Shown one piece after another: positions 18,041-64,000 of a DNA stretch of 64,000 bases (position 1 is the stretch's first letter; every line of letters begins with the position of its first letter). Where the stretch lies: positions 7,564,001-7,628,000 of the forward strand of contig OZ024744.1 of the NCBI GenBank assembly GCA_964016885.1. The letters run 5' to 3'. The position numbers and the translations under genes were made by a program. The DNA comes from Eledone cirrhosa (taxonomy: Eukaryota). The notes below the pieces were generated by a model that saw only the letters and a list, made by a program, of their open reading frames with translations, was not told where the DNA came from and did not search any database.

Positions 18041-18088
18041 TATATATATATGTATATATATTTATGTATATATATATATAAATATATA

Positions 18089-18231
18089 TGTGAGAAAAAC
18101 CACAGACCCTCCATCTCAACTCACCTTTTGAAAAGCAGAAGAGCTGCGAAACCGGTAAAAGAACCAAATAAATATATATATATATATATATTTAAAAAAT
18201 AAGACTCCAGTTGCATTTTCGATTTCATCTC

Positions 18232-18237
<6 letters not shown>
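18089..18237 (+). mobile_element. Solo family-J pLTR tip in (TA)n with U3-A8 hammerhead at 18124-18161
   Basis: Homologous to 46028-46172 and to the reverse complement of 20936-21080. Confidence 0.8.
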
Positions 18238-18284
<47 letters not shown>

Positions 18285-20764: not shown

Positions 20765-21988
20765 AAATAGGATATATCATGATCATCATCATTTTACGTC
20801 CGCTTTTCCCCGCTTGCAAGGGTGGAACGGGTCCTCGTCTGTACACCATCTCTCCACTTGCCACGGTCCTTCGTCATCTCCACCGTAGAGCTTCAGCAAT
20901 ATGAGGTCTGCTCTCACCATATATATATATATATAAAGAAAAAAATATGAAATTGAAAATGCAACTGGAGTCTTATGTTAAAATATATATATATATTTAT
21001 TTGGTTCCTTTACCGGTTTCGCACTTCTTCTGCTTTTCAAAAGTAGAGTTGAGATGGAGGGTCTGTGGTTTTTCTCCCATCTGGTTGGTCTTTGAATGTT
21101 ACTTGTTTCATATGGAAAAAAGTGACTCGAAACGCCAGGTATTTAGAGAAGTAATTTGATTGGTTGTTCAATAAGTATAATAAATTTCGCGCTAAGTCGT
21201 GTTACAAAGTTCTTCAAACAAGTGTGTGGGGGGGGGGGGGGGCTCAGGTTGTTTTTTCATATATGAGTGAAGTTTGGTTGGTTGGTGCAGTCACGTGAAT
21301 AAGCACATCAGCCTTCGCGCCAGTTTGTTTGAATTTCTTTTTACTTTAAAAAAGGTGGCTCACGAAGGCTTTTTTTTAATAAATGTAATTTGATTGGTTA
21401 TAAATGAAATTATGGCTGTCACGTGAACAAGTTCCTTGGAAATTCGAGCCCGTATTTGGGAATTTATTTTGTAGCCTTTTAGAGAATTTTATGACAAACA
21501 AAAGATAATGGTCAAGAGAAATGAGATGGGAGAATTGTTCTGGTTCAGTGAATATGGTTAGTTCGCTGGGGTATCAGAATTCAGACTTTCTATTGAAATA
21601 AAGAAAGTAGAGATATGTATGTTTATTTGTGTGCTTGTGTGGTGTGTGTGTGTGTAGAGGAAGATGATTCTATTAGTAGAAATGGGGGAGGGAGTTGTGT
21701 GTGAGTATGGGAGTATGTTAAGCTGGAGAGAATATATATATTTTGTGTGAGTGTATGTGTGTAGGAAAGGGATTCTATTAGTAGAAATAGGGGAGGGAAT
21801 TGGGTGTGTGTGTGTGGGAGGGGTTATGCGTGTGTGTGGGGGGTGTTATGTGTATGTGTGTGAGTGTAGGGGAGTATGTGTGTGTGTATAGGTGTTATGT
21901 GTGTGTGGGAGTATGGTTAGCATGTTAGCATGAAGAGAATATATATTTTGTGTGTGTGTGTGTGTGGGTGAGTGTGTGTGTGTGTGTG

Positions 21989-24244
21989 TTAGTAGAAATA
22001 TTTTTGAATGAACATATTTACCTTATTTATTCGTATTTGTTCTGTTGTATTGTCAGCGCAAAGGTAAAATGGGAAGACTTGGAATTTGGGTGTCTTATTA
22101 CTTGCGCATATATCTAGATGTGCGCTTTGTGGTATCTGTCTCGTGGTTGGATCTCGTAATTGTTGTCGATGAACTGTCATTCTGTTTCTGAGTGTGAGTT
22201 TAGTTTGTCCAATATAATCTCCATTGCATCCTTTACATTTAATGGCATGAAGTAGATTTTTTGATGAGCAAGTGAAGTGATTTTTTACAGTAAAATTTTG
22301 TCCTGATTGAAATGTATACGTGTTGCCTTCAATGAGGTGAGTGCAGGTTCCACAATAAGAGCGACCACATTTTTTGACACTTGGTTGTGGGTTGTGGTAG
22401 GTAATTTGGCATTGGTGAGTAATGTTTTCAGTGATTTCGGTTGTCTTTTGCTTTTGATTATTTTGTGTGTTTCAAGGGTTTTTTCTTCTTGGGTTTTGTT
22501 TCAATAGTGGGATGTTCTTGTGAATAGTGCTGTAAGCTTCCGCATTTCTTGGGTTGTGTGTTGAGATATATGATAGAATATTGGACATACCTTAAATTTG
22601 TTTCTGTTTTCGTAATTCAACAATGCCTATTGCTTTAGCCGTTTCTATTCCATTATTCATTAGTAATGGTGGGTACTGTCTTTCGAGTAGAATTTCCTTT
22701 AATTCTTGAAGTCTTTTATTTCGCGTTTCATAATTGGAGACAATTGTGTAAATTCTTCTTGCTAGGTTAAAAGGAATGTTCGTCTTCGTGTGCTTTGGAT
22801 GGTTGGAGGTGAATAGCAGGTACTGTTTATCAGCTTCAATATTTGTGTCTTTTTTTAAGATTAAGATGTCCAGAAATGGGAGTTGATCTTGGCTGTATTC
22901 CATTGTGAATTGAATGTGGTTATTGATGCCGTTAATTAAATTTTTGAAAGCATTCAGTTGGTCGAATGTGGGGGACCAAAGAATGTGACAATCATCCAAG
23001 TAGCGTTTCCAATTCTCTGATAAATATTTGTGGCAGTTCAATCCGTATTTTGATTTGGACTGTTCATATATCTGGACTTCTAAGTATGCCATGACTAAGT
23101 CTTTTTGTTCCCATCGCAGTCCCCGATATTTGCTTGTAAGTACTGCCATCGAAATCAAAAATGTTGTTCTGTAAGATAAATTTTAATCCCTCGGTGATGA
23201 AGCTTTTTTCTATTCTGTCAGGTATCTCATTGGGATAATTCTCTAGTCAGAATCCTATTGCTTCTAGGCCGTATTGGTGTGAGATCGTTGTGTAGAGATT
23301 CACTACATCGAAAGACACAATAATAGTGTTGCTGTTGACATGTGGTGGTTTGGAGGTGGTTTAAGAGGTCCAGATCGTCTCTTACAAGGCTTGGTATGTG
23401 TTTGAGAATTGGTTTTAGTATAATGTCTATAAAGTTGCTCAGTCTGTGTATCTCCCATAGTGGGCTCGCTACAATTGGTCATAATTTAAGGTCTGTGGCG
23501 TATTGTGTGTTCACGCAGGGTGAGGTGGATTGTTTACAGGCATTGTCAATTATTTTACACTTGTGGATCTTCGGAAGTCCGTAAAGGTTGCTGGTTTTGT
23601 ATTCAAAATGTGTTAAATAATCGCGTTCCTTTTTAGTTAAGTCTTCCTGGTATCGACAAATCAGTGTGTTTAATCTGGTCATTGATTTTGATTGCTGGTA
23701 TTTTTTTACTCTTTCATAGTAATTAGTATTTTGTAAGAGAGAGAACATAGAATTTTTATATTTTTCAGCATCCATAATGACAACAGTACTTCCCTTGTCC
23801 GCTTCCTTAATTATAATGTCCGTATTTTTTATTTATTTCATGGATAATCTCCCATTCCCTTCGACTTGTGTTGGATTTGTGTTTAGGTTGCGGTAGTTTA
23901 TGGTATAGAAAAGTTGCTATGTGGTCACAAAATTTGTCCAGAACTCTGTTTCTACCTTTTGTTGGGTTGTAGCTGCTTTTATTCCGTTCAATTGATTGGT
24001 TGTTATTCTCCTTGTCAAAGAATTCCTCTGTGAGACGTAATTTTCTACAGAAGTGTGAGATATCGTCATTTATCTCATTGGGGTTAGAGTATTGTGGTGT
24101 TGGTGTGAATTTGAGTCCTTTAGAGAGAATTTTAACTTGTTGGGCTGAGAGGTTTGTATTTGAAAGGTTGATTATTTTCGGTTTTTCAAAATCGGTTTGT
24201 GCCACCGGGTGTCGTGGGTCCTGTAGCCTTGGTCTAAAAAATGA
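21989..24244 (-). pseudogene. Neptune-like RT + Zn-finger + GIY-YIG ORF broken by frameshifts and stops
   Basis: IINLS..LSKGLKFTPTP, LYGLPKIHK, VSFDVVNLYT, WKRYLDDCHILW, LPFLDI, CGRSYCGTC, IKCKGCNGDYIGQT..LRNRMTVHRQQ. Confidence 0.88.
24201..24241 (-). promoter_or_regulatory. Candidate programmed -1 ribosomal frameshift signal
   Basis: T TTT TTA (24241-24235) in the upstream frame, 7-nt spacer, GCTACAGG/CCGGTGGC hairpin (24227-24201); the -1 frame is the RT frame. Confidence 0.6.
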
Positions 24245-24273
24245 TTTTTCTGGAATGTTTTTTCCATGGTATT

Positions 24274-24348
<75 letters not shown>

Positions 24349-41524: not shown

Positions 41525-43139
41525 AATATATTTACCTATTATTCCACAATGCTTCAAGCAAACTTCAATACTCTCTTATATAGTTCAAGGAAACAACAAG
41601 CTGAGGTACAAAACGTCATATTAGTTTCACACTTTATATGGAAAAGACTAAAGTTATGCACTCGACTCCATTATCGATATACTCCTCAGACTGGCCATTC
41701 AACGTGTATTCAACATATTTAGAGTCTATGTATGACAACATTTGCGTACGTGGCTATTTAGTAATATATTGAGCGTTTGTGAGGAATACACTTTTAATTA
41801 TCCTTAACGAATTGTGTGTAAGTGTATATGTGTGTGCATGTATTCGTGTGTGTATGTACTGTGGATGTGTGTCATTGTGCGTGTATGTATCCGTGTATGT
41901 GTGTAGGTACTCTGGCTGTGTGTATATGTGTATGCATGTATCCGTGTGTTTGTGTAGGTACTGTGGATGTGTGTGGGTGAATTTCAAAAAATAAGAACGT
42001 CATATTTTGCAGGTAATTATATTACTTGATGCAATTTCATTCAACGATAAAACCATTCTACATCTATTAATGAGTTATTAGAATATATTCTAAGTATCCT
42101 AAATTATTATGTAATTTTTGTTGATTGACATTGTTTTACACATTTTAATTAATGCATAATAATGCAGGTTAATTGCAATTCCATATTGTTTACCTTAAAT
42201 ATATAGGAAGGCGAACGGGAGACAAAATAAAAAGGATTTTAAAACACGGGGAGCCATGGAAGTTGTGAAGCAGCTGAATAATTGTTCTTCTGTTGGTTGT
42301 TGAATCCTTTAGTAACTAATATATATATATGTATATATATATATTACTTCACGATGAAACACTGTTTTCTACATTTATTACATCGTCAATAGTGTTATTT
42401 AGGTATACCCTTGAAAATATTTGCAACAAATGATTATAATTTGAACATTTTAATACATAAATGCCCCATACACATACACGACCAAGACACACATACATGT
42501 GTTTTCTCAGATATATTTTCTTTTGATGTTATTTCTGATTATTTTAGAATAGCATATTACACTCTTCTCCACCTTCCTTCTGAAATTATTACTTTACTTT
42601 AATGATAAATGGATGCAACTTGTCTAATGGTTAAGGTGTTGCTCTCACTGGTGAGGAGTGATGATCATAGCTTTGTTTCAGCGAGGCACATACATATCTT
42701 CCCTCACTTCACCAAAAATAATGTTGTCCAAGGGAAAGGCAAAGGCTGATACAATCTGGCACCAGTGACTTTGCAACACATTCTATATATATAAACTCTA
42801 TATTCTATATGTCCACTATCTATCTATCTATCTATATATCTATATAGGGAGGGTAAAATTCCCGAGATCAATGGACGAGTTCTCTCTAGCGGTCTCTGTC
42901 CTTCATCATTGTCGCCATGTCCTGCGTCTCCAAGAGACCCGTGTCTGTCCTTAGGGCATCAACATATGTCAACCTCGGCCTGCTTCTTCTAGTATCTATA
43001 TACCCACTATATATATATACACTATATATGCACTATAAATTCTATATATCCACTATATATGAGGTTGTCCAAGGGAAAAGTAAATGGTGTTACAACCAGG
43101 CAACAGTGTCATAGAACATATTCTATATATATACACTAT

Positions 43140-44087
43140 ACTCTATATTCACATGCGCATCAGAAAATCTAATATATCTATTAACTTGTTCAGGTTGTCG
43201 AGAACAATACATAGGCCAGACCAAAAACACCCTCCGCCAACGCATGACTGTCCATAGATCCCAAATTAAAATACGGGAATACAGGAAAATACCACTGAGT
43301 GAACACATTGATACCTGTGCCGCCCAAAATCATCCCAACATACAAATTTAAAGATAATGCCACCCACACCCAGCGCATCAGCATGGAATCTCACTTTATT
43401 AACAAATACGGACCCCGTCTAAACACTTCTCCCTAAGACGAACCCACAACATACACACGTCAACATACATACCTACATCAGCATACATCCTACATACATT
43501 TCTATCCACATATAAACACAATGACATACGTAAACACACATGTTCTATGGTGCAACACAAATATACACAAATTTGCATATCTTTTGATGTCTATAGATAT
43601 AAACGTGCCGACACACACACATACATATACGCACACATGCATTGCACACTGATGGGCACATACATATTTGTACACAAGTATTCCAATACGGCAGGGCCTA
43701 ATGGATTCCCCTTGCAGTACGTACAATCTGGACACTCACACACACATTGGTATTATGCCAATACTATATATCATTTCACACCTTCTATTATTAATGTGTT
43801 TGGTGTTCTATTGAGAGAATCGTTTTTGCAGAAAATATCGAATAATGTACACCATTTTTACTAGAATCACAAAAATACTAGTCCACCCACACATACACAC
43901 ATACACACACACACACATATACACACACACATACACACGCGTACACTAACATACAAAGAGACATATACACACACACACACTTCGTATAAGACAAGAGCTG
44001 AAATATATATTTCAACATGTTAAAATATCCCCCACACCCGTACAGACACATTCCTACTACCCGATCCCTCTACCACGAATTACTCGG

Positions 44088-45539: not shown

Positions 45540-46168
45540 ACCCCAGCGAACCAACCATATTCACTGAACCAGAAGAATTCTCCCCATCCCATTTTTCTTG
45601 AACATTATCTTTTGTTTGTCATAACATTCTCTAAAAGGCTACAAAATAAATTCCCAAATACGGGCCCGAAATTTAATGAACTTGTTCACGTGACAGGAAT
45701 AATTCCATTTATAACCAATAAAATTACATTTATGTAAAAAAAACCTTCGTGAGCCACCTTTTTTTAAGTAAAAAGAAATTCAAACAAACTGGCGCGAAAG
45801 CTGATGTGCTTATTCACGTGACTGCTGCATCAACCAACCACACTTCACTCATATATGAAAAAAAAACCTGACCCCCCCCCCTCCCATTGTTTGAAGAACT
45901 TTGTAACGCGAACTGGCGCGAAATTTATTATACTTATTCACCAACCAATCAAATTACTTCTCTAAAAACCTGGCATTTCGAGCCACTTTTTTCCATATAA
46001 AACAAGAAACATTCAGAGACCAACCAGATGTGAGAAAAACCACAGACCCTCCATCTCAACTCTACTTTTGAAAAGCAGAAGAACTGCGAAACCGGTAAAG
46101 GAACCAAATAAATATATATATATTTTTTAAAATAAGACTCCAGTTGCATTTTCGATTTCATCTTTTTT

Positions 46169-46172
<4 letters not shown>
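45540..46172 (+). mobile_element. Family-J pLTR (promoter modules and U3-A8 hammerhead at 46065-46100)
   Basis: Reverse-complement homologue of 20936-21572, flanked by (TA)n. Confidence 0.85.
45663..46002 (+). promoter_or_regulatory. Candidate pLTR promoter: three E2F-like/E-box/CCAAT modules (third lacks the full E-box) plus TATA
   Basis: GGC(C/G)CGAAA at 45663, 45791, 45915; TCACGTGAC at 45686, 45814; CCAAT at 45715, 45945; TATAAAA at 45996. Confidence 0.55.
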
Positions 46173-46252
<80 letters not shown>

Positions 46253-63627: not shown

Positions 63628-64000
63628 ACAAACTCCAAAACCTTTGCGATACTATCCAAACTATGTTCTCTACTACCAACCCAGGAAAAACCAACGAAGA
63701 ACCATGTGAGATTGATTCATACAAAATGAGAATTCGAACAATTCCAAAATGGAACAAATCCCTCAGAGACAGAAAGTTCTCATTCTGGAAGATGATACAA
63801 AATCACAACAAAGCAGAGATATATGAAAAATGGCTTAACTCAACCCCTCTAACTCTCCCACGTAAACTACAAATAAAGTCCATTCCAAATGAACCCGAAC
63901 CTCAAGGACACCTTAGGGAAAGAATGGCATTGGAAAAATGAAGACAGAAATTGAACTTCTTAAACTGAGGGCCCAGACAAATGAGGAAAAAATCAAAACC
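63627..64000 (+). pseudogene. Helical/coiled-coil-like ORF fragment of unknown function with one frameshift, running off the window
   Basis: Open from the junction: DKLQNLCDTIQTMFSTT...WNKSLRDRKFSFWK..AEIYEKWL..LPRKLQ..RERMALE; a frameshift in an A-run continues as MKTEIELLKLRAQTNEEKIKT. Confidence 0.55.

Follow-up and report, generated by a model that had tools for sequence, protein, structure and literature searches.

A two-ORF organisation with a conserved slippery heptamer in Neptune-type Penelope-like elements of Eledone cirrhosa

According to the accessible text of Craig et al. (2021; PMC8557442), canonical endonuclease-bearing (EN+) Penelope-like elements (PLEs) contain one open reading frame (ORF). 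The searchable portions of three further papers (PMC3846280, PMC6515669, PMC13159263) either describe EN+ PLEs as single-ORF or are silent on programmed frameshifts, and a text search of the available part of PMC7643828 gave no match. Some Neptune-like elements carry esterases, according to the available text of PMC5408684, so extra coding parts have precedent. A PLE ORF1 can also be split off by a frameshift with a pseudoknot, as stated in a figure legend (Craig et al., 2021, Fig. 1; PMC8557442). Frameshift-linked ORF1 in Neptune-type PLEs was not found in the searchable literature, outside which lie Arkhipova (2006), Arkhipova et al. (2017, MBE) and Repbase. There is some chance, a minor one in our view, that such a frameshifted ORF1 has already been published for Neptune. 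The frameshift and pseudoknot of the legend reportedly belong to Athena/Terminon elements. Two viral systems are close in mechanism. HIV-1 gag-pol frameshifting, for which the accessible text of PMC12086091 gives an efficiency of 5-10%, combines a heptamer with a downstream structure; the retrievable part of PMC13712778 also served this comparison. For SARS-CoV-2, the accessible text of PMC8168617 reports that where the 0-frame stop lies affects frameshifting and ties this to trailing ribosomes.

The window analysed here is a 64,000-nt stretch of the Eledone cirrhosa genome (contig OZ024744.1, positions 7,564,001 to 7,628,000). Its minus strand contains an element that, judged by its sequence, is a decayed, 5'-truncated copy of a Neptune-type Penelope-like retrotransposon, here called family A (Table 1). 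The copy matches an intact family A member at 93% over 24279 to 21998, is cut at its 5' end at about 24279, at the (TA)n run, and is broken by stops and indels (in the reverse transcriptase-endonuclease, or RT-EN, ORF near 23831, 23345-23349, 23102, 22829, 22485, 22478 and 22393), in agreement with the truncation and decay recorded in the initial annotation. That annotation had also read CAT TTT TTA on the minus strand as an HIV-like heptamer, followed by an upstream-frame stop and with TAA TAA in an AUG-less RT frame. The heptamer and both sets of stops are present where it placed them, and the RT frame is Met-free over 154 open codons. Its upstream frame, containing 'MEKTF', is indeed the ORF1 frame, but the ATG of that stretch is nearly private, and the real ORF1 start, 1137 nt upstream of TTA, was lost from the window copy by 5' truncation. 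The caveat that the stops lie near the (TA)n junction falls away on comparison of 30 copies, which places the RT-frame stops in the element itself; most family A copies have an even nearer RT-frame TGA, 8 codons before the site.

Table 1. Features of the family A copy and its flank, in window coordinates.
Feature	Position	Strand	Remarks
T TTT TTA, slippery heptamer read in the ORF1 frame, next base G	24235..24241	-	Read from sequence; shared, in identical phase, by families B, C and L183
3' remnant of ORF1	24172..24279	-	Residues 367-400 of a 400-aa protein
ORF1 stop TAA	24174-24172	-	20 codons past TTA
TAA TAA closing the RT frame on the upstream side	24272..24277	-	Part of the element
ATG of 'MEKTF'	24265..24267	-	Variant in 2/30 copies; not the ORF1 start
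7-nt spacer between heptamer and hairpin	24234-24228	-	
Weak hairpin	24201..24227	-	No better than shuffles; absent from families B, C and L183
In-frame GTG of the RT frame	24203..24205	-	Family B has ATG there; C and L183 lack any such codon
RT and GIY-YIG ORF in the -1 frame, decayed	21998..24241	-	Intact copies have 775 codons
Linker (CX4CXXC) plus GIY-YIG endonuclease, CCHH residues present	21989..22471	-	Neptune-type long linker
3' untranslated and terminal-repeat region	20932..22066	-	72-86% like intact copy
(TA)n microsatellite adjoining the truncated 5' end	24276..24347	.	

The window holds further PLE pieces. These include a GIY-YIG fragment of another copy at 43130-43348 (plus strand; 53% identical to the family A endonuclease) and family A 3' or terminal-repeat fragments at 45555-46175 and 18088-18243 (plus strand). 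A family C ORF1 fragment, 97% like locus L119 and ending before the junction, occupies 63699-64000 and also L220:326-1263, with terminal-repeat pieces on either side.

A search of the 3.0-Gb own genome yielded 1278 family A candidates at first look. The 30 ORF1-spanning copies analysed were the top scorers for a query that contained the junction; all carry the T6 run and all end ORF1 at one position, so that the check proposed in the initial annotation, for a long ORF1 ending 20 codons past a conserved TTTTTTA, came out as predicted. ORF1 is intact in 24/30 (400-401 aa, with an ATG in frame with TTT TTA), while over the length of ORF1 the -1 frame meets 25-28 stops, and in 29 of the 30 it is shut 8 codons ahead of the site. 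Twelve full-length copies, retrieved with a junction-containing query and picked for long open RT frames, have an RT-EN frame of 771-775 codons in ten cases, and in all twelve the first Met of this frame is codon 163, beyond the first conserved RT motifs. Genome-wide counts of the exact pattern at the family A junction were 293 for T6, 10 for T7 and 8 for T5, and the five T7 copies examined are no nearer to one another than to T6 copies. The -1 offset is the normal state of family A. A private indel in the T-run, considered as a source of the offset, is out, since T6 is found in 293 copies and in the other families alike. About 100-200 bases upstream of the ORF1 ATG, in both L011 and L021, a GTAAAG resembling a donor and a pyrimidine stretch that closes with TAG are separated by about 95 bases; this pair, seen by eye, is possibly a 5'-UTR intron as in Penelope.

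Two more families from the same genome, B (L100) and C (L119), encode ORF1 proteins 35-45% identical to that of family A and to each other, and RTs 56-58% identical to that of A. Both have T TTT TTA G in ORF1 phase and the RT in the -1 frame. A sample of 30 family B copies, obtained with a query lacking the junction, has T6 in all 30 and the standard -1 spacing in 24; the six others differ in the downstream C-run (five) or in an A-run (one), and 2/30 have +1 spacing. Among family B loci chosen for long frames (L082, L097, L108-L112), a longer C-run fuses the ORF1 and RT frames, leaving 739-1181 codons open. Family C junctions, recovered with a query that contained the junction, are identical in 20/20. 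Scans with the RT for relatives' DNA returned 1, 2 and 0 loci, of which only L183 spans the junction; this metagenome contig of another organism has an ORF1 25-28% identical to the others and the same heptamer, phase and -1 offset. No relatives were found in metagenome contigs scanned with ORF1, and two protein searches of the own genome gave no families beyond A-C among the loci examined. All four families with DNA thus share TTTTTTAG, its codon phase and the -1 offset, and all four have two overlapping ORFs rather than the single ORF of described EN+ PLEs. Given x-Phe-Leu, codon usage would produce T TTT TTA with a probability of 0.006-0.016 per family; it is present in 4/4, and the heptamer is beyond chance. 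A related RT at L182:188-3205, on a contig of a bacterial genome bin that is probably host DNA, is encoded by one ORF of 1006 codons and has another N-terminal extension, and therefore the two-ORF layout is not used by all relatives.

At the protein level, a profile built from seven ORF1 sequences retrieved 761 clusters with E no worse than 0.001; none of the best 150 exceeds 496 aa. We examined 153 proteins (148 from the profile search and five from another search); 80 are at least 330 aa long, and exclusion of the chimera P0261 left 79. Heptamers and neighbouring RTs of these homologues are deduced from protein, codons being known only in the four DNA families. Phe-Leu occurs in the last 45 residues of 67/79 long homologues, versus 2/79 in the preceding control window, in tails that do not align; FF, FQ, FS and LF (4, 7, 2 and 4 occurrences) are not enriched. 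The residue before Phe-Leu is K, E, Q, M or W in 0/67, with a background of 18% (P 1e-6 if the rows were independent, which kinship breaks), and therefore only residues with a U- or C-ending codon fit at that place. This bias points to a constraint that would act on nucleotides. The codon after Phe-Leu is that of a G-initial residue in 46/67 (background 21%) and non-G in 21/67. In P0020, labelled Mytilus by its source, and in P0167, the ORF1 tail runs through FF or FFF into the RT start, and this ORF1 family is therefore tied to these RTs in other animals; a weak search of 5239 candidates revealed no fused longer ORF1 homologues.

Several side observations concern these tails and their RTs. 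Twelve of the 79 long homologues lack Phe-Leu near the end, and P0146, P0155, P0164, P0247, P0272, P0187 and P0196, also without it, end in x-F-R or H-F-F, which could be other slippery heptamers or a +1 signal. The ORF1 tails of A, B, P0001, P0003-P0006, P0127 and P0202 have a D-T-[RGQ]-W motif 7 residues past Phe-Leu. The motif is kept despite third-position changes between A and B, which suggests that the unshifted tail may have a function of its own in this branch. Related RT-EN proteins P0024, P0053, P0068, P0092 and P0124 are labelled as bacterial symbionts of molluscs; they are probably host retroelements in metagenome bins.

The junctions of the four families establish, at the level of sequence, a two-ORF organisation with a conserved slippery heptamer. 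An X XXY YYZ heptamer stands in the upstream frame, and the -1 ORF is open from the site and closed upstream, the arrangement of a -1 frameshift. We consider it likely that on transcripts of intact copies ribosomes slip back one base at the conserved U UUU UUA, adding the RT-endonuclease to the end of ORF1. Most ribosomes would make ORF1 alone and a minority an ORF1-RT-EN fusion of about 1,145 aa, a division that would fix the balance between structural protein and enzyme.

The T-run and the AG that follows could instead be a 3' splice acceptor, with an intron that takes out most of ORF1, so that spliced mRNA would give RT and unspliced mRNA ORF1. We judge this improbable. The AG directly after the T-run in 4/4 DNA families and the excess of G-initial codons past Phe-Leu would both fit an acceptor, for which an AG a few bases later is possible in several of the non-G cases; the rule against K, E, Q, M and W fits a pyrimidine equally well, and introns are known in PLEs, according to the available text of PMC8557442. 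However, the tract keeps a single ORF1 phase, that of Phe-Leu, whereas the FF, FQ, FS and LF of a free-phase acceptor are not in excess, and AG is missing at that place in 21/67 homologues. A and B have only weak donors in phase (4 of 7 consensus matches), C has none, and no AUG follows the AG in three of the four families. Genomic copies with other sequence spliced on number 0 versus 293 unspliced, a weak argument because PLEs keep introns. Contigs from four runs have a DNA-like depth that rises towards the 3' end and are hence uninformative on splicing; they list neither an AG joint nor a T-run indel.

It is similarly unlikely that RT-EN is translated as a separate protein, through reinitiation past the ORF1 stop or through internal initiation, at an AUG or near-cognate codon of its own, with the heptamer in a secondary role. 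Family B has an ATG and family A a GTG 12 codons into the RT frame, about 8 codons ahead of the ORF1 stop, and 47/120 RT homologues are called from 18-36 residues before LxKGLKF, the closest beginning with ME or MA there. Yet family C and L183 have only ATA or ATT at that place and no ATG, GTG, CTG or TTG from the site to the first RT motif; 37/120 homologues are called from inside or past the first conserved motif, and the conserved Phe-Leu would be left unexplained. An ATG, GTG or TTG within 19 codons has a chance probability of 0.37, and the NTG of the RT frame is explained by ORF1 coding because the D-T-R-W codons of ORF1 are alike in A and B except at third positions. The GTG of the window copy may be read as a by-product of the Arg-Trp codons in ORF1, or else it could be a secondary start. 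It is, in our view, very improbable that the frame change arises because the polymerase slips on the T-run as it transcribes, or in rare T7 master copies with a fused ORF. Ten T7 copies do exist, family B has in-frame fusions by way of its C-run, and P0020 and P0167 are fused proteins, but T7 and T5 are equally rare beside T6 and the T7 copies examined form no group. Neither a fixed codon phase nor UUA would be needed, and a long fused homologue is missing from the best 150 of 761 clusters and from the weak search of 5239 candidates. A -1 ribosomal frameshift at the heptamer is the reading that we prefer.

What would stimulate such a frameshift is a separate matter. The initial annotation had assigned the role to a hairpin behind a 7-nt spacer. 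The spacer is there, and the arms (24227-24220 and 24208-24201) form a stem that contains one mismatch and one G-U, but the fold, at -7.8 kcal/mol (z -0.34) over 39 nt and -8.7 kcal/mol (z 0.12) over 69 nt, is at chance level and is not conserved. Downstream structure does not exceed shuffles in family B, C or L183, with family C unstructured, and no folding window of the four families has a z-score under -1.8 for local folds computed without pseudoknots or long-range pairs. The suggested check for covariation found 0 compensatory changes among 65 family A contexts, a weak result since the copies are young, and in family B the sole short stem is broken by a G-to-A change in 6/30 copies. The local hairpin, with a fold at chance level, unshared and free of covariation, was rejected and is probably not the stimulator.

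The distance to the ORF1 stop behaves differently. The stop lies at least 10 codons past Phe-Leu in 67/67 homologues and exactly 10 in 21/67; at 0.07 stops per codon, about half of the stops would be expected under 10 codons. The signal is inflated because the homologues are kin, 19 of the 21 exact-10 stops falling in one branch of 26 rows (support 97 in a quick tree), although its rows sit on long branches, and two elsewhere. In DNA the heptamer-to-stop distance is 20 (A), 19 (B), 10 (C) and 10 (L183) codons, and the RT-frame words that supply the stops of C and L183 differ, as does their distance from the first RT motif. Three tails without Phe-Leu carry a different x-Phe pair precisely 10 codons before their end and two related ones have it at 12, which we take as no more than a lead. 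In eukaryotes, queued ribosomes are spaced by about 10 codons, so that a ribosome at the stop would keep the one behind it in place just as UUA enters its P site. The roadblock for a structure-free -1 frameshift might thus be a ribosome that terminates at the ORF1 stop, either one ribosome length (10 codons) or two (19-20 codons) past the heptamer; this is the stimulator we prefer, though as a tentative proposal that we regard as possible but doubtful. If it were true, enzyme output would go up as ribosome load increases, opposite to the viral signals known. A plainer reading is that the stop distance reflects a linker of conserved length, the stops being supplied by RT codons; otherwise, the heptamer may act alone, aided by slow UUA decoding. 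A terminating ribosome as frameshift stimulator was not described in the titles or abstract openings of the literature searched.

The initial annotation had called the lineage gag-pol-like. The two-ORF layout with a -1 overlap stands, whereas homology to Gag is not supported: ORF1 is all-helical, has no clear capsid or Pfam match and is gag-like by position only. Residues 1-260 have a predicted fold at pLDDT 90 with five or six long helices only, and the tail is disordered and Q/N/R-rich. Searches gave ORF1 no Pfam family, solved relative or clear fold match, and no Pfam family occurs in more than 1/85 ORF1 members. Fold and profile matches are to generic coiled-coils or helical bundles only; gag-like matches in the Atlas score 0.83, below the Atlas threshold, and the three ORF1 sequences inspected have no CCHC zinc knuckle. 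ORF1 is likely to be a helical, oligomeric protein, for which we infer a role in RNA packaging. The 775-aa frame matches Pfam RVT_1 (E 1e-6, just under the cut-off) and GIY-YIG (E 2e-6). An alignment of three families has CCHH residues around GIY-YIG, and all three have the CX4CXXC linker with spacing that, compared by eye, is Neptune-like and unlike that of Nematis. Rfam found no hammerhead inside the elements. In DNA flanking an element, L150:207-277 matches hammerhead HH9 at 31.8 bits, below the gathering threshold of 52.

The two-ORF organisation alters the standard single-ORF picture of endonuclease-bearing PLEs and brings in an unannotated ORF1 protein family of at least 761 clusters at 50% identity. 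Entry by frameshift would explain why RT genes are often annotated with no good start. It would also give the enzyme an N-terminal extension, as a fusion protein, of relevance to the biochemistry of these telomerase relatives.

The elements resemble the Neptune clade in their RT, CX2-5CXXC linker, GIY-YIG domain with CCHH, (TA)n flanks and 5' truncation, and in a long linker like that of the Neptune rows in the accessible part of Fig. S2 of Craig et al. (PMC8557442). Unlike Neptune elements, which the available text describes as single-ORF, they have a separate 400-aa ORF1 that overlaps the RT in another frame. With the frameshifted PLE ORF1 of Craig et al. (2021) they share a coiled-coil-type ORF1 upstream of the RT and, probably, a frameshift link, but here the element has its own C-terminal endonuclease and there is no conserved pseudoknot or hairpin, the clades being compared from the legend. 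The UUUUUUA heptamer and -1 geometry are those of HIV-1 gag-pol, as far as the accessible text of the HIV papers goes; in contrast, these elements have no conserved stem-loop, ORF1 gives no clear match to a capsid-fold Gag, and the 0-frame stop lies at least 10 codons away, often exactly 10. As in SARS-CoV-2, placement of the 0-frame stop relative to the slippery site appears to matter. There, in the available part of the source, a close stop (5 codons) lets the pseudoknot refold, whereas here stops under 10 codons are absent, no pseudoknot is evident, and the terminating ribosome is the candidate roadblock.
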